From IMG/VR virus record IMGVR_UViG_3300009164_000062: 20,000 nucleotides of DNA; one strand, 5' to 3'. Source of the stretch: an uncultured virus (IMG/VR IMGVR_UViG_3300009164_000062) (taxonomy: Duplodnaviria > Heunggongvirae > Uroviricota > Caudoviricetes). This document shows, in pieces, positions 2,865 to 8,100 of the stretch. Numbering within the stretch: the stretch's first letter is position 1; the number at the start of each line of letters is the position of its first letter. The position numbers and the translations under genes are program-made. A model generated the notes under the pieces. The model had not been told where the DNA came from. It did no database searches and saw only the letters and a program-made list of their open reading frames with translations.

Positions 2865-2981
2865 ATGAGAAACTTATTTCAAACACTATATTATAATACA
2901 ATTGGAAAATTAGTTAGAGAATACAAATATCGTAAACGACTTAAAGAGTTGAAGAAACGAGATCCATTTATCTATAAGTGA
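2865..2981 (+). CDS. Small basic protein, 38 aa (MRNLFQTLYYNTIGKLVREYKYRKRLKELKKRDPFIYK), not in the ORF track
   Basis: ATG 2865 to TGA 2979-2981 fills the gap between the SDR and the carbamoyltransferase. Its stop overlaps the next GTG (GTGA). Confidence 0.7.
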   Translation: MRNLFQTLYYNTIGKLVREYKYRKRLKELKKRDPFIYK

Positions 2982-4474
2982 CAATGAAAAATACAAATTA
3001 CATAGGAATATCCGCTGGATTCCATGATGCATCTTTAGCTGTAATCAAAGACGGCGACATATTATTTGCGGGTCATAATGAACGATATAGCGGGATAAAA
3101 AATGATAAAGATATAGGCTCTGCAATAGTCAAAGATGCATTGCAATATGTTCAAGGTGACTATGAGTTACATTACTATGAACGTCCTTGGTTAAAGTACT
3201 TGAGACAATTACGCTCAGGGGAAAATCCAAATTTAAACACATTATTTCCTAGCAGATACTTAGCTCAAGGTGCTTACAAGAGCCTAGGTAAAAAGAAAAT
3301 ACATACTCATGGTCATCATCTTTGCCATGCGGCTGCTGGGTTTCAAACAAGTAATTTTACAGAAGCCACAGTATTGATAATTGATGCCATTGGGGAGTTT
3401 GACACTATAAGCGTCTGGGATGCTAGATACGATAACAATCATAAAGCTGTGTATAAAAAAATATACAGTAAAAAATACCCTGACAGTTTAGGTTTATTTT
3501 ACAGTTCGTTAACAGATAGGATTGGATTAAAACCAAACGAAGAAGAATACATTACAATGGGTATGGCAGCATATGGTGATAGTAAATACTATCCACAGAT
3601 GCATATGGATCTGCTATCCGATAGTTACAACATAGATTTTAAAGACAATTTACATTTGGGATTTCCGGGTGAATATTTACCAGATGCTAGTAATGAAGAT
3701 TTAGCCGCCAGTGGACAATTACTATTAGAAGTCTTATTAAAAAATATATTACAACGTGCAAAAATTAACGGTTGTAGTAAGAATCTAGTATACGGCGGCG
3801 GTGTAGCACTAAACTGTTTAGCAAATAGATTTCTAGGAGAATACTTTGATAATATATGGATTATGCCTAGCCCCGGTGATAGTGGTAGTAGCCTTGGTGC
3901 TGCCGCTCTGGCTTTTGGGGGTAGAGTTAACTGGACCAATTCTTATCTCGGGTATGATATTCCTGGCCCTTATCCCGTTAATCAGTTATTGGATAGGCTA
4001 CTTACTGAACAAATTGTGGGAGTTGCCTCAGGACGAGCCGAGTTCGGCCCCCGCGCACTCGGAAACCGTAGCCTCCTTGCAGACCCTAGAGGCAGCAAGA
4101 TTAAGGAGAAAGTAAATGAAATTAAACGAAGACAGAAGTTCAGACCCTTTGCGCCAGTCATTCTGGAAGAGTATGTTCATAATTATTTTAACATGCCTGT
4201 CAATTGGCGTGATAGTCAGTATATGCAAGTCATCAGTACTTGTAGGTATCCTGACTTATATCCTGCTATCGTCCATGTTGACGGCACTAGTCGTGTCCAA
4301 ACTGTCCCGAATGATGGTAGCGGAATCAGAGAACTCCTTGAAAAATGGTATGTCTTAACTGGTTGTCCTATGTTGCTTAACACATCACTAAACATTAGGG
4401 GTGAGCCAATGGTTAATACTAGATTAGATGCAGATAGATTTGAAATGCATTATGGTATAAAGGTTCTTTCGTGA
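2978..4474 (+). CDS. Carbamoyltransferase, CmcH/NodU/TobZ family
   Basis: HDAS, HHLCHAA, IDAIGE, MGMAAYG, GGVALNC, EFGPRALGNRSLLADP, RPFAP, HVDGTSRVQTV, LLNTSLN. The start could be ATG 2984. Confidence 0.95.
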   Translation: MTMKNTNYIGISAGFHDASLAVIKDGDILFAGHNERYSGIKNDKDIGSAIVKDALQYVQGDYELHYYERPWLKYLRQLRSGENPNLNTLFPSRYLAQGAYKSLGKKKIHTHGHHLCHAAAGFQTSNFTEATVLIIDAIGEFDTISVWDARYDNNHKAVYKKIYSKKYPDSLGLFYSSLTDRIGLKPNEEEYITMGMAAYGDSKYYPQMHMDLLSDSYNIDFKDNLHLGFPGEYLPDASNEDLAASGQLLLEVLLKNILQRAKINGCSKNLVYGGGVALNCLANRFLGEYFDNIWIMPSPGDSGSSLGAAALAFGGRVNWTNSYLGYDIPGPYPVNQLLDRLLTEQIVGVASGRAEFGPRALGNRSLLADPRGSKIKEKVNEIKRRQKFRPFAPVILEEYVHNYFNMPVNWRDSQYMQVISTCRYPDLYPAIVHVDGTSRVQTVPNDGSGIRELLEKWYVLTGCPMLLNTSLNIRGEPMVNTRLDADRFEMHYGIKVLS

Positions 4475-7008
4475 TTGATTCGTCAGAATTAGATAGAAGG
4501 GAACAATTATGGTCAAGTGGTTATTGGGATATCCCTGAAAACATTGATACTAGTAATTTTGATTTTGATTGGAGACCATTCAAGTATGACAGACCATACA
4601 TACATCAGTTTGGTACACAACATCAAAAGACAGGTGGACCAAGATTTGTAATACCAAAAAACGAAGGTATAAAATATCAAACAAGCCAACATGCAATAAG
4701 ATTACCTACGCCAGACTTAAGAAATTGGAGACCACTAATAGCAAACGTAGAGTTTGATTATAGCTGGCATCCTGATGAAACAGAACCGCCTTTCGTGTAT
4801 GTATTTGGAAATCAATGGTATGACTCAGTTACAATGCCAACTATGCAGTACAAAATTTCAGGTGCAACTGAAAAAAAATATATTGATACAATTAAAGCCA
4901 CATTAACACCTGATAAAACTAATTGGATTATTCCAGATGATATAGAAGATGATTTTGATTATAGTTGGGTACCGAGTCCTACAGAGCCACCACTAATCTG
5001 GGAATTCGGAACACAACATCAAAAGACAGGTGGTCCTAGTTATGTTGCAAAAAACGGAGTTCATACTAAGTACTCATCGGCACTAATTGCTACTAAGAAA
5101 GACAATAAAGAAGATAGATGCTGGAGACCTTTATTACCTAACATTGATTTTGATTTTAGTTGGCATCCAGATAAAAATGATCCGCCCTACATATATGTGT
5201 TTGGCAATCAATGGTATGATAGTCTAACAATGCCTACGTTACTGTATCGTGTAAAGGGTGCTACTGAAAAGAAGTATATGACTGATATCAAAGTCACATT
5301 AACTCCTAATAAATCTATGTGGACTATACCAGATGACATAGAAGATGACTTTGATTATAGCTGGCTACCGCACCCAGACGAACCAGCATATATATGGCAG
5401 TTTGGAACACAATGGCAAAAAAATGGCGGCCCCAAATACAATGCGCCTAACGCAACTGTAATAAAACATTTTGATTTGCTCAGAGCAACTAAAAAAAATA
5501 ATAAAGATAATCGTGCATATAGACCAGTGGTCTCAAATGTAGAGTTTGATTATAGCTGGCATCCTGATGAAGACGAACCTCCTTACATATATGTATTTGG
5601 AAATCAATGGCATAACTCAGAAGATATGCCTACTATTTTGTATCGTGTCAAGGGTGCAATTGAAAAGAAATATATTAACGATATAAAAGCTACATTAACA
5701 CCTGATAAAGAAAATTGGGAAATACCTGAAGATATCGAAGACTCTAATTTTGACTATAGCTGGTGCCCAAAGCCAACTGAACCTCCTACTATATTTGTTT
5801 TTGGAACACAACATCAACGTACAGGCGGACCAACTTATCGTTTTAGAAATGGGACAGATAAAAAATATATTAATACAATGAGAGTTACAAAGAAACCTAA
5901 TATTCGCAATTGGCGTTTCATTGAGGTAATTGATAGAGATACATTTGACTTTAGTTGGCACCCCGAGGAACTAGAAGAAAAATTTAATCACATTGTTGGT
6001 ACTAAATTTCATACACCTGAAATAATGCCTGCAATCATGTACCGAGGTCATGATAACGCAACAGAAAACAAATATATTGATAAAGTGCAAGCTGATTTAA
6101 AGATAGATAAAATCGTTTATGAGGATAGCATATTTGATGCATGTATGGAGAATAAGTTTACAACAGCATACATGCATTTTGTAAAGGGTACAAGTAATTA
6201 TAATCACAACCTAATTAAAGCAGATAAAATCAGTGTGCATTTATTCCCAAGTGAAGCTATTATACCTAAAGCAGCCGTGACTTTCTTTTATGATAAGATT
6301 ACTGACTATGACTATGTTATTGAACACAAGTTTGAAGAAACAGTTGAACCACTGGATATTATATTCTTTAGTAATGGTGAGGCATGTGCGGATGCTAATT
6401 ATGAACATTTACTGTCACTTAATTTACCTAATAGGATCGTGCGAATTGATGGTGTTAAAGGTCGTGTAGCAAGTCAACATGCGGCAGCAAATGCTAGTAA
6501 TACCCCGTGGTATTTCTTAGTCAATGCTAAATTGAAAGTAAGAGATGATTTTGACTTCAATTGGCAACCCAACATATATAAATCACGCAGACATTATATA
6601 TTCAGAGCAACTAATCCTGTAAACGGGTTAGTTTACGGACATCAAGCTATTGTCGCTAACAATAAAAAATTAACATTGAATACTGTAGTACGCGGGTTAG
6701 ACTTTACTATGGATAGCACAACTGAAGTAGTAGATATTGATTCTGGTATAGCTATGTATAATACTAACGAATGGGATACTTGGAGAACAGCGTTCCGTGA
6801 ATGTATTAAGTTGTCACATGCTACCGACAATGACAGTAAGTTTAGATTAAGTATTTGGCTTACAAAAGGTGACGGAAAGTTCGGAGAGCAGTCCGTCAAC
6901 GGTGCAGAAGATGCGGTTAAATACTACAAAGAAGTTGGCGGGGATTTTAATAAACTTATGTTGACTTATGATTGGGAATGGTTGCGTATACGTTTTGACC
7001 AAAAATAA
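4471..7008 (+). CDS. Large protein with about 8 N-terminal FDYSW-type repeats and a C-terminal glycosyltransferase-like (GT-A-like) domain
   Basis: Alternating repeats visible in the translation. The C-terminal DIIFFSNGE...RIDGVKG...TPWYFLVNAK...TWRTAFRE segment resembles GT-A-like phage proteins. GTGA overlap with the upstream gene. Confidence 0.6.
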   Translation: MIDSSELDRREQLWSSGYWDIPENIDTSNFDFDWRPFKYDRPYIHQFGTQHQKTGGPRFVIPKNEGIKYQTSQHAIRLPTPDLRNWRPLIANVEFDYSWHPDETEPPFVYVFGNQWYDSVTMPTMQYKISGATEKKYIDTIKATLTPDKTNWIIPDDIEDDFDYSWVPSPTEPPLIWEFGTQHQKTGGPSYVAKNGVHTKYSSALIATKKDNKEDRCWRPLLPNIDFDFSWHPDKNDPPYIYVFGNQWYDSLTMPTLLYRVKGATEKKYMTDIKVTLTPNKSMWTIPDDIEDDFDYSWLPHPDEPAYIWQFGTQWQKNGGPKYNAPNATVIKHFDLLRATKKNNKDNRAYRPVVSNVEFDYSWHPDEDEPPYIYVFGNQWHNSEDMPTILYRVKGAIEKKYINDIKATLTPDKENWEIPEDIEDSNFDYSWCPKPTEPPTIFVFGTQHQRTGGPTYRFRNGTDKKYINTMRVTKKPNIRNWRFIEVIDRDTFDFSWHPEELEEKFNHIVGTKFHTPEIMPAIMYRGHDNATENKYIDKVQADLKIDKIVYEDSIFDACMENKFTTAYMHFVKGTSNYNHNLIKADKISVHLFPSEAIIPKAAVTFFYDKITDYDYVIEHKFEETVEPLDIIFFSNGEACADANYEHLLSLNLPNRIVRIDGVKGRVASQHAAANASNTPWYFLVNAKLKVRDDFDFNWQPNIYKSRRHYIFRATNPVNGLVYGHQAIVANNKKLTLNTVVRGLDFTMDSTTEVVDIDSGIAMYNTNEWDTWRTAFRECIKLSHATDNDSKFRLSIWLTKGDGKFGEQSVNGAEDAVKYYKEVGGDFNKLMLTYDWEWLRIRFDQK
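4525..6060 (+). repeat. Intragenic tandem repeat: about 4 copies of a ~130-aa unit, each made of two ~65-aa sub-repeats
   Basis: A-type W-x-IP-x-DI...FD[YF][SD]W...FGTQ[HW]Q[KR][TN]GGP occurs 4 times. B-type [WY]RP...FD[YF]SWHP...YVFGNQW occurs 3 times plus one degenerate copy. DNA repeats such as gtagagtttgattatagctggcatcctgatgaa lie near 4748 and 5539. Confidence 0.9.
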
Positions 7009-7049: not shown

Positions 7050-7136
7050 ATGAGTTGGATATTATTGATATTGGGATCAGTGTTTTTGTATTATATGGTA
7101 GTCTGCAAAGATGCTATTGAAAAGATAGATGACTAA
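7050..7136 (+). CDS. Small membrane peptide, 28 aa (MSWILLILGSVFLYYMVVCKDAIEKIDD)
   Basis: Strong AAGGAG RBS upstream, and one hydrophobic helix followed by an acidic tail. Confidence 0.55.
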   Translation: MSWILLILGSVFLYYMVVCKDAIEKIDD

Positions 7137-7138
7137 TT

Positions 7139-7288
7139 ATGAAGCTAATACGTTACAGAGATGCGGGTATGGTTACATATACTTGGTTTTATGTAAACGA
7201 AAAGCAACAATGTATTAGTCCGTTTTTTGACAGCGAAGAGGAAGCTAGAGATTGGTTAGATTCAGTCTTTGACAAATCAAAAGAGTAA
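7139..7288 (+). CDS. Hypothetical protein, 49 aa (MKLIRYRDAG...SPFFDSEEEARDWLDSVFDKSKE)
   Basis: Starts 2 nt after the previous stop and ends immediately before the tmRNA acceptor piece. Confidence 0.6.
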   Translation: MKLIRYRDAGMVTYTWFYVNEKQQCISPFFDSEEEARDWLDSVFDKSKE

Positions 7289-7355
7289 GTTATTGCTGTA
7301 TGAAGCAAAGAGAAAAGTGTTCTGGACGGGGGTGCGAATCCCCCCAGGTCCACCA
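7289..7355 (+). ncRNA. ssrA: Permuted tmRNA, acceptor piece (normal 3' part, ending in CCA)
   Basis: GAC variable loop, T-arm GGGGG-TGCGAAT-CCCCC (7328-7344), acceptor 3' strand CAGGTCC (7345-7351), discriminator A and CCA (7353-7355). The 5' boundary is approximate. Confidence 0.9.
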
Positions 7356-7367
7356 TAAGGAAGTTTG

Positions 7368-7736
7368 ATGCGTATTAATGAGATTGCCGGTGCAAAACTA
7401 AGTTTCAATACAACAAAAGGTAGTAATACCATTGGTGTTGAAATGAACGTTGGCGGGCAATATGCAGGAACGTTTCAATACGATGCAGATAGTGGAAGAA
7501 GTTTAGTAGAGTTAGATCCAACCCTTCAAGGCAAGGGATTAGGTAAAATTCTAATACTAAAAGGAATCTATACTGCCATCATGTCAGGATTAGACTATGT
7601 AGAAGATGAGTCACGCACCCAAGCATTTGACAATGCTATGGATAGTTTGGCAGACTCGGGATACATAGTCAACGATGATGAGTATTGGTATGTTACCGGT
7701 GACGGTGAGCAGTATGTCAAACAAGTTTCTTTATGA
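7368..7736 (+). CDS. GNAT-fold (acetyltransferase-like) protein encoded inside the tmRNA intervening segment
   Basis: 122-aa ORF with AAGGA RBS at 7357-7361. VELDPTLQGKGLGKIL matches the GNAT acetyl-CoA motif A (Q/R-x-x-G-x-G). Confidence 0.62.
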   Translation: MRINEIAGAKLSFNTTKGSNTIGVEMNVGGQYAGTFQYDADSGRSLVELDPTLQGKGLGKILILKGIYTAIMSGLDYVEDESRTQAFDNAMDSLADSGYIVNDDEYWYVTGDGEQYVKQVSL

Positions 7737-7737
7737 T

Positions 7738-7962
7738 GGGCCTGACCTAGATTCGACAGGGCAACAAGTAATAGAGTGGACAGCACGGTAATGTGAAAAC
7801 CGTAGGGTTGGGGGAAAAGCAATAGTCGCTATGCTCATAGCATAGAAAGACGTTAGGCCCGGCCGAAGAAGCGAAAAAAGTAACCGCAAACGACTCACAG
7901 TTCGCATTAGCAGCCTGATAAAGGCAGCTTAGGGTAAGACATACCTCGTAACAGAAAATCAG
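7738..7962 (+). ncRNA. ssrA: Permuted tmRNA, coding piece (normal 5' part plus tag reading frame)
   Basis: GGGCCTG (7738-7744) pairs with CAGGTCC, giving the G3-U alanine identity pair. It is followed by GATTCGAC and by CAGGGCA pairing with TGTTCTG (7318-7324). Tag frame GCA AAC GAC TCA CAG TTC GCA TTA GCA GCC TGA TAA. The 3' boundary is approximate. Confidence 0.9.
7886..7918 (+). other. tmRNA proteolysis tag reading frame (A)ANDSQFALAA*
   Basis: Resume codon GCA follows an A-rich AAAAAAGTAACC context. The AND...ALAA pattern is typical of proteobacterial SsrA tags, with tandem stops TGA TAA. Confidence 0.92.
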
Positions 7963-7985
7963 AAAAGGCTCTTTGGAGCCTTTTT
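7963..7985 (+). terminator. Rho-independent terminator after the tmRNA gene
   Basis: AAAAGGCTC-TTTG-GAGCCTTTTT hairpin with a T-tract. Confidence 0.85.
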
Positions 7986-8100
7986 CTCTAAGTGTTTACA
8001 CTTAGTAAGAACAATGATTTTCACTATGTTATTTCTGATTTTTCCGTGTATAATAGTGATACATACTAAGACAGTATGTCAAACTTAACAGGAGAAAATT

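Follow-up and report, generated by a model that had tools for sequence, protein, structure and literature searches.

What does the spacer of a two-piece transfer-messenger RNA (tmRNA) gene contribute to the RNA, and how is a protein gene accommodated inside it? The question is raised by a 20,000-nucleotide (nt) stretch of DNA from an uncultured Caudoviricetes virus (IMG/VR record IMGVR_UViG_3300009164_000062), referred to here as the window. A permuted two-piece tmRNA gene lies on its + strand at 7294–7985, with the acceptor piece at 7294–7355, the coding piece at 7738–7985 and a 382-nt spacer (intervening sequence) at 7356–7737 between them. The spacer contains a nested open reading frame (ORF) of 122 amino acids on the same strand (7368–7736, stop codon TGA at 7734–7736). 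An earlier interpretation made from the letters alone, the sequence-only reading, had proposed that a long-range stem closes the spacer and buries the ribosome-binding site and start of the nested ORF. Our own reading, to which we assign a probability of roughly 0.6, is that a stem closes the spacer of this phage tmRNA, clamps the two halves for processing and excludes translation when shut, and that the ORFs carried as cargo are trimmed to fit.

A continuous stem closes the spacer

The RNA extending from 7289 to 7985 was folded, yielding a minimum-free-energy (MFE) structure of −210 kcal/mol (z = −4.9, 20 shuffles). The letters and coordinates of the sequence-only reading were all correct, and the first helix that it described, 7354–7362 with 7727–7735, was present in the MFE structure with pair probabilities of 0.963–0.999. 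This helix contains 9 base pairs (bp), of which one is G·U (C7354-G7735, A7355-U7734, U7356-A7733, A7357-U7732, A7358-U7731, G7359·U7730, G7360-C7729, A7361-U7728 and A7362-U7727), and begins with the last two nucleotides of the CCA end paired to the UG of the stop codon. Beyond it, the MFE structure takes an in-register continuation, 7363–7367 with 7726–7722, at a probability of 0.44–0.50. The sequence-only reading had instead placed a second helix behind a 4-nt bulge, and GTTTGATG (7363–7370) can pair with TGTCAAAC (7715–7722) in the window. However, the pair probabilities of this bulged helix were only 0.01–0.48, and it loses to the in-register continuation. We rejected it as a window-specific alternative, G7716 being found only in the window and replaced by C in 35 of the 36 nested sequences of this ORF. 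It is further broken by A at 7718 in L299 and L302 and by two more changes in L301, and the substitution G7363A in L006 disrupts one of its G-C pairs yet improves a G·U to an A-U pair in the bulge-free model. As nested relatives break the bulged helix, we conclude that the conserved helix is the one of 14 continuous bp, formed by a 5′ arm at 7354–7367 and a 3′ arm at 7722–7735 on the + strand.

The closing stem adjoins the acceptor stem (7345–7351 with 7738–7744), and between the two lie only A7352-U7737, which is a pair in the MFE structure, and a C7353·A7736 mismatch. The acceptor stem itself varies among the nested relatives at A7346-U7743, which is G-C in L302 and U-A in L301, both compensatory, and has U on both sides in L012.

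The 5′ arm, UAAGGAAGUUU, contains the Shine-Dalgarno sequence (SD) AAGGA at 7357–7361, 6 nt ahead of the ATG at 7368–7370. The SD and the start codon had both been assigned to this arm. The former does lie within the conserved arm, but the arm ends one nucleotide before the ATG. The 3′ arm consists, as had been proposed, of the last codons of the ORF (CAA, GTT, TCT and TTA, encoding Q, V, S and L) plus the first two nucleotides of the stop codon. Its sequence, CAAGTTTCTTTA, is invariant across the 36 nested sequences apart from three kinds of change: TCT to TCC in L301, L302, L346 and L361, by which G7359·U7730 becomes G-C; A7733C in L007; and TGA to TAA in L299.

The stem covaries across a lineage of phage tmRNA genes

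Viral contigs were scanned for the acceptor end of the window's tmRNA type, which gave at least 120 stretches. Combined with the loci found earlier, at least 118 loci had a 5′ acceptor strand within 450 nt; L083 was dropped because its downstream sequence was not tmRNA-like. The comparison set consisted of 117 loci with 108 unique spacers of 30–382 nt, among the matches listed. When 20 family loci with other spacers were checked against Rfam, all 20 matched RF04321, 11 matched RF01850 (betaproteobacterial tmRNA) and three matched RF01849. The window copy does not reach the RF01850 gathering score (84 bits), and a relative with the window's spacer, L013, scores 52 bits with that model. Although the window copy fails RF01850, the lineage appears to be beta-like, because 11 of the 20 sampled loci pass.

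Pairs were counted in a fixed register in which spacer nucleotide i faces nucleotide −(4 + i) before G1 of the coding piece, so that positions 1–10 face nucleotides −5 to −14. Over these ten positions, 93.2% of the cells were paired, compared with a mean of 64.4% (standard deviation 1.3, maximum 68.8%) in 1000 partner shuffles, which ignore kinship, and with 40–61% in slid registers. Each of positions 5–9 is represented by 4–6 pair types. There are 76 distinct 5′-arm decamers, 64 of which are paired at nine or more of the ten positions and 72 at eight or more; none is paired at six or fewer. The number of distinct arms, together with the slid-register control, makes this a robust result at the level of sequence comparison. 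The in-register run spans 11–13 bp in 60 of the 108 spacers; in the window it is 12 pairs long, and the window therefore carries the family stem. The four nucleotides before G1, which in the window form a TGAT leader at 7734–7737 (+ strand), are likewise conserved, reading TGAT in 72 and TAAT in 16 of 97 unique termini.

G·U combinations (171 cells) far outnumber A·C combinations (26 cells) among the family spacers, which argues for selection on the + strand RNA rather than on repeated DNA. The paired fraction is 0.939 in the 38 spacers shorter than 80 nt and 0.948 in the 25 spacers of at least 120 nt. The sequence-only reading had named homologs with different spacer ORFs as the place to look for compensatory changes, and there the stem is both present and covarying, in 108 spacers that contain many different ORFs or none. 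From these comparisons we conclude that the closing stem is a lineage-wide RNA element, regardless of spacer content. It is not built for the ORF of the window; it is generic to the spacers of the lineage and equally present in ORF-less spacers of 30–79 nt. Sequence comparison establishes the existence, register and conservation of this stem, its RNA-level nature and the fact that its arms share nucleotides with the SD, the final codons and the stop codon.

The spacer is a slot for unrelated genes

A full-length ORF was defined as one with a start within 25 nt of the CCA and a stop in the last 20 nt of the spacer or beyond. Such an ORF was found in all 25 unique spacers of at least 120 nt, compared with a mean of 0.7 and a maximum of 3 when the spacer interiors were shuffled (200 shuffles). 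Spacers with an ORF plus GGA, GAG or AGG in their first 10 nt were grouped as the ORF+SD class (n = 41). The start codon lies 11–14 nt after the CCA in 35 of these 41 spacers, and in 26 of them the stop codon is the conserved leader TGA. The spacer ORFs are mutually unrelated. Three passed Pfam cut-offs: DUF2061 (72.6 bits), which is a membrane protein, CxxCxxCC (29.4 bits) and PGDYG (27.8 bits), the last also matching phrog_419 (E = 9.7e-12).

The C-terminal residues SL are found in six unrelated ORF classes, and VSL in four (KVSL in L019 and L133, PVSL in L034, QVSL in L055, RKSL in L130 and IKSL in L135); the window class likewise ends in QVSL. These terminal residues are encoded by the 3′ arm, the complement of the SD-bearing 5′ arm. 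As unrelated ORF classes share an ending that is coded by the 3′ arm, we regard this as direct evidence, at the sequence level, that the RNA shapes the gene ends. The suggestion that the ORF termini are co-adapted to the RNA is borne out by the placement of starts and stops, by the common SL and VSL ends and by the other termini of free-standing homologs, described below.

The strength of the stem differs with spacer content. The mean arm duplex energy is −10.6 kcal/mol with 2.46 G·U pairs in the ORF+SD class, compared with −14.4 kcal/mol and 0.88 G·U pairs in 41 spacers that lack both features. The weaker arms of the ORF+SD class suggest a trade-off between stem strength and translation.

The slot also appears to be exchangeable. 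The nested ORF of L003 is 99.7% identical to that of the window, whereas the tmRNA flanks are only ~65% identical in ungapped alignment, which makes this a mosaic locus. One 382-nt cassette was found behind three T-arm types, and single T-arm types carry 15–21 spacer lengths. This pattern suggests that spacer cassettes have been exchanged between tmRNA scaffolds, or scaffolds around cassettes.

Other properties of the spacers were noted in passing. Spacers of 80–93 nt (L054, L091, L095, L110, L134, L030, L052 and L076) contain SD-led ORFs of 21–26 amino acids that are nearly all hydrophobic, for instance with I, V, L and F in succession behind a brief polar head, and that end at the leader TGA; their products look like small membrane peptides. 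The ORFs of L027, L043, L060, L018 and L023/L072/L090/L099 pass G1 and stop 10–36 nt into the mature coding piece, such that a cut by RNase P would strip the stop codon from them. L081 has three tRNA genes within ~1 kb of the tmRNA gene, and L091 and L047 have a single one each.

The nested gene of the window and its relatives

The nested ORF has 58 protein relatives. Viral contigs L003–L014 hold it in a 382-nt spacer like that of the window, and a metagenome scan for relatives gave 73 loci, of which 8 short ones gave no reading frame. All relatives with at least 75% identity are nested; they include 13 full-length loci with a 382-nt spacer (L289–L297 and L299–L302), in all of which the ORF is intact, as well as partial copies. 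In contrast, all readable relatives with 71% identity or less lie within longer free-standing ORFs of 145 to more than 380 amino acids, and no tmRNA ends were found beside any free-standing relative that could be read. Nested relatives with at least 75% identity end in QVSL, with the single exception of L007 (QVSF). The termini of the free-standing homologs differ: these proteins extend further at both the N- and the C-terminus than the nested form, which lacks, among other things, their Lys-rich tail. This difference is consistent with ORF extensions having been trimmed to fit the spacer slot. The free-standing homologs (L303–L355 and P0047–P0057) are domains of longer phage proteins, many with Lys-rich C-termini such as ..HWCANMKSGKKK.

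The ratio of nonsynonymous to synonymous polymorphism (pN/pS) of the nested ORF is 0.18 (all pairs, 13 sequences), indicating purifying selection. The AlphaFold2 model of its product is of high confidence, with a predicted local distance difference test score of 88.5. Foldseek returned nothing for this model at E ≤ 0.001, its top rows being acetyltransferases. With VIA-align, the best match was to a MYST domain (Z = 8.1, which is rated middling; root-mean-square deviation 3.8, 104 aligned residues) and most rows were GNATs; the C-terminal half of the model also resembles winged-helix regulators (Z = 6.4–7.2). Pfam gave no GNAT match for the window ORF at E values up to 1, and a PHROGs search gave no match; the long relative P0055 scored 20.1 bits against PF00583, for which the cut-off is 20.7. 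Residues 54–60 read QGKGLGK, and we take the acetyl-CoA motif of GNATs to be Q/RxxGxG/A. On the strength of the model, the nested product appears to be a GNAT-like mini-protein.

A model for the closing stem

The roles of the stem in processing and in repressing or coupling translation are ones that we infer from its position. In the primary transcript, the closing stem would stack on the 7-bp acceptor stem, the stack being interrupted by the conserved C74·A(−2) mismatch by the cleavage site. The stem would clamp the halves of the tRNA-like domain together over 382 nt, allowing RNase P to cut at 7737/7738 and the 3′ end to be matured at A7355, with release of the spacer. By analogy with other permuted tmRNA genes, the spacer would be missing from the mature tmRNA.

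The ribosome-binding site is composed of stem nucleotides, and the RNA could not be open for translation and closed for processing at the same time. Because the SD is within the stem, a given transcript would be either translated or matured. Translation of the ORF most likely takes place co-transcriptionally, ahead of the 3′ arm that is made ~360 nt later; the SD would be single-stranded until the 3′ arm has been made, or for as long as ribosomes hold the helix open. After the last ribosome leaves the UGA, the stem would shut, hiding the SD and committing the RNA to tmRNA maturation. ORFs entering the slot would be trimmed to fit.

Several considerations weigh against this model. Complementarity in the single sequence is just moderately unusual: the arm duplex energy in the window is −13.4 kcal/mol, and of 19,977 stretches of the same length in the 20-kb window, 66 equal or exceed the true 3′ arm in pairing with the 5′ arm. 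It is the position of the stem and its covariation across the family that place it beyond chance. The weaker stems of ORF-containing spacers may simply reflect the pairing of a purine-rich SD with U-rich codons, and not ribosome access. With C75 and A76 paired to the leader, RNase P could recognize the CCA end less well, not better. The C75-G pair is lost in the 16 leaders that read TAAT and is therefore not essential. Repression may be weak, since the 5′ arm comprises only 12 spacer nucleotides and breathing is possible in a helix of about −10 to −13 kcal/mol.

The RNA evidence, finally, consists of contigs without RNA ends, in which neither a processing site nor a translation event is observed. 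Contigs of the window's spacer class were present in four lake metatranscriptome runs (X15–X18, Logan). Three records of 431, 431 and 438 nt cover 7333/7326–7744, and one of 367 nt covers 7378–7723; DNA carry-over is possible. Of the acceptor piece they cover just 23–30 nt, and of the coding piece 7 nt, and because these overhangs fall below the 31-letter bridging rule the contigs do not prove an uncut precursor. They leave 7100–7269 and 7984–8100 without cover, which proves nothing. Apparent joints near 7358/7730 in RNA contigs were rejected, as unknown letters separate the two sides; these joints probably derive from relatives with other spacers.

Alternative explanations

The nuclease step has a serious alternative. 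RNase III, rather than RNase P and a 3′ endonuclease, could make the first cuts that release the spacer by acting on a long quasi-continuous helix. The substrate would comprise the 7-bp acceptor stem, the A73-U(−1) pair, the C·A mismatch and the 14-bp closing stem, or about two helical turns. The tight length of the helix fits this proposal, in that the family's 11–13-bp run, the CA/UG pairs and the acceptor stem amount to ~21–23 stacked pairs, and release from a ~22-bp helix would resemble the action of RNase III on rRNA processing stems and on 23S rRNA intervening sequences. RNase III excises the ORF-carrying intervening sequence from the 23S rRNA of Coxiella (PMC4990558). However, the helix contains a conserved mismatch and several G·U pairs, tRNA-like ends are normally generated by RNase P and 3′ trimming, and a cut within the stem would take the SD off the released ORF RNA. 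We consider a first cut by RNase III possible but unlikely.

A further proposal, which we put forward only tentatively and think quite unlikely, makes the spacer an exchangeable expression slot with maturation as its switch. Cargo would be translated only before the 3′ arm is made, and the RNA would then be silenced or close to non-stop. If so, the ORF RNA released by RNase P would have only a single nucleotide after its stop codon, and a terminal helix would sequester its SD, leaving the RNA either silenced or nearly a non-stop substrate of its own tmRNA. Phages would in this manner time the production of small, often membrane-active proteins to the installation of their own ribosome-rescue RNA.

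The stem could also have evolved for the nested gene, as a fold-back translational repressor with hok-like pairing of 5′ and 3′ ends that is unrelated to tmRNA maturation. The SD and the border of the start codon do lie within the 5′ arm, and the many very hydrophobic spacer peptides of 21–26 amino acids may need tight control. Against this, the stem is equally present in the 38 spacers shorter than 80 nt and is stronger in the 41 spacers without an ORF and an SD-like sequence. Because spacers devoid of ORF and SD have the stem, it predates and outlives any ORF, and an origin as a repressor is very improbable.

We see equally little chance that the arms are DNA-level terminal inverted repeats serving recombination or mobility of the spacer cassettes. 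Such a role would fit the mosaic locus, with its near-identical ORF in diverged flanks, and the finding of one cassette in three T-arm backbones alongside many spacer lengths per T-arm type. However, the excess of G·U over A·C is the asymmetry expected of + strand RNA, the fixed points of the arms are the CCA end and the RNase P site, not a recombinase gene, and the flanking conserved acceptor strands could equally serve exchange. The 66 equally good matches in the window would speak for a fortuitous match of an A/G-rich SD region with U-rich final codons, but chance is refuted by the fixed-register covariation seen across 76 distinct arms, which lies well above both the shuffled and the slid controls.

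Identity of the tmRNA gene and other features of the window

The Rfam model RF04321 aligns at 7294–7918 on the + strand (90.8 bits, gathering score 47, E = 1.1e-16, model positions 1–213), and by this covariance-model score the window gene is a member of that family; it is the sole gathering-level match there. In the alignment, an inserted block of ~380 nt, corresponding to the 382-nt spacer that the window shares with its nested relatives, separates the CCA end from the 5′ acceptor strand. The order of the parts is permuted. The T arm (7328–7344) and CAGGUCC-ACCA (7345–7355), made up of the 3′ acceptor strand CAGGUCC (7345–7351), the discriminator A (7352) and the CCA (7353–7355), lie upstream of the 5′ acceptor strand GGGCCUG (7738–7744), all on the + strand. 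The alanine identity pair G3·U70 is present as G7740 with U7349 (pair probability 0.999). Within the coding piece, which was delimited by the Rfam alignment, the tag translation and a hairpin, the tag reading frame at 7886–7918 encodes ANDSQFALAA followed by a stop codon, a hydrophobic end of the ..LAA type. The terminator hairpin at 7963–7985 was found by a terminator scan, which called 7963–7984 on the − strand; the tail on the + strand, TTTTTCTCT, is U-rich. A promoter scan gave no more sites in the window than in shuffles, and none just upstream of 7294.

Tools for finding tmRNA genes can miss genes of this kind. ARAGORN reported no tmRNA gene in the window, presumably because of the 382-nt insert (it found no tRNA gene there either), and Rfam's filtered scan recovered RF04321 at only 9 of 15 submitted loci.

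The viral record that contains the window is 44 kb long, and because CheckV rates it as ~12% complete the phage is probably large; we assign the window to a large freshwater-type phage. An SmpB gene was not found in the 44-kb record, which at ~12% completeness does not imply its absence from the phage. The sole match in a search of a phage collection was 71 nt in Xanthomonas phage BUDD. Among contigs of the genome collection, a scan with the acceptor pattern gave at least 121 loci, almost only standard tRNA-like 3′ ends, with GGGCC[AT]G downstream in 15 of those listed. RF01850 was not found above its cut-off in any of 151 genomes of the class of the comparator G001, nor did G001 itself give a match. 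The only window-type tmRNA among the genome-collection matches listed is L190, on a 20.6-kb contig of a metagenome-assembled genome (MAG); this contig is probably of phage origin and was assigned to a bacterial MAG by binning.

Upstream of the tmRNA region are a carbamoyltransferase gene at 2978–4474 on the + strand (Carbam_trans_N, E = 7e-33; Carbam_trans_C, E = 2.5e-48) and an ORF of 845 amino acids at 4471–7008 on the + strand that has no Pfam family. The latter contains about four internal repeats, each of roughly 150 amino acids, with the motifs FGTQHQKTGGP and FD(Y/F)SWHPDE..PP(Y/F)(I/V)YVFGNQW(Y/H).

Implications and comparison with known systems

The loop discarded by two-piece tmRNA precursors is assumed to be inert. 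In this family it has a conserved architecture, a covarying helix tied to both the CCA end and the RNase P site. In aquatic phages the spacer is also a slot for small genes of at least 12 unrelated kinds, and that helix dictates their SD, final codons and stop codon. If our reading of the closing stem is correct, one transcript would serve both as messenger and as precursor of a stable RNA, with fates that are structurally exclusive. The family would then be a small natural model in which to study how translation competes with RNA processing, how constraints from RNA and protein together shape gene ends (as in the common C-terminal VSL) and how cargo is shuffled by phages between conserved RNA scaffolds.

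In hok mRNA of a type I toxin-antitoxin system, end-to-end pairing hides the translation start of a small gene until the RNA is processed. The resemblance to the window family is functional only, in that both hide the start region of a small gene that often encodes a membrane peptide. Unlike the hok case, no antisense RNA was seen in the window family, and the pairing occurs in a tmRNA precursor and also in the absence of an ORF.

Other permuted tmRNA genes (RF04321, RF01850, Caulobacter and Melnitz) share with the window the order of acceptor piece, spacer and coding piece, as well as the tRNA-like domain and the tag reading frame. In the Rfam consensus structures of RF04321 and RF01850, the spacer is an unpaired loop, whereas in the window family it has a covarying closing stem, which the protein genes inside the spacer use as SD and stop. 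The paper on Melnitz, an OM43 phage, predicted 53 of 133 unique phage tmRNAs to be two-piece (PMC9004378). A 2025 tmRNA database paper defines the intervening sequence and describes spacers with a tRNA-Ala gene or a repetitive element; the word ORF does not occur in its main text (PMC11915505). A literature search that did not extend to supplements found no paper on ORFs in permuted tmRNA spacers.

The same database paper reports a homing endonuclease gene in 36 of 883 forms of the group I introns in the tmRNA T loop (PMC11915505). As in the window, a protein gene is nested in a removable segment of a tmRNA gene. These introns are self-splicing, their exons are rejoined and the ORF serves the mobility of the intron, whereas in the window family end processing would be of the tRNA type, with no rejoining and with diverse cargo genes.

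The nearest functional analogue would be the ORF-bearing intervening sequence in the 23S rRNA of Coxiella (S23p). There, as is proposed for the window family, a stem-closed insert containing an ORF is cut from the precursor of a stable RNA, leaving the RNA in two pieces (PMC4990558). The Coxiella ORF is apparently untranslated and decaying, and its insert is excised by RNase III (PMC4990558). The window ORF is not of this untranslated, decaying kind, given its pN/pS of 0.18, its intactness in 13 of 13 loci and its SD 6 nt before the ATG, a canonical spacing, and many unrelated genes occupy the slot in the family. Spacers are a known feature of permuted tmRNA genes; in the window family the spacer has a conserved architecture and is used as a gene slot.

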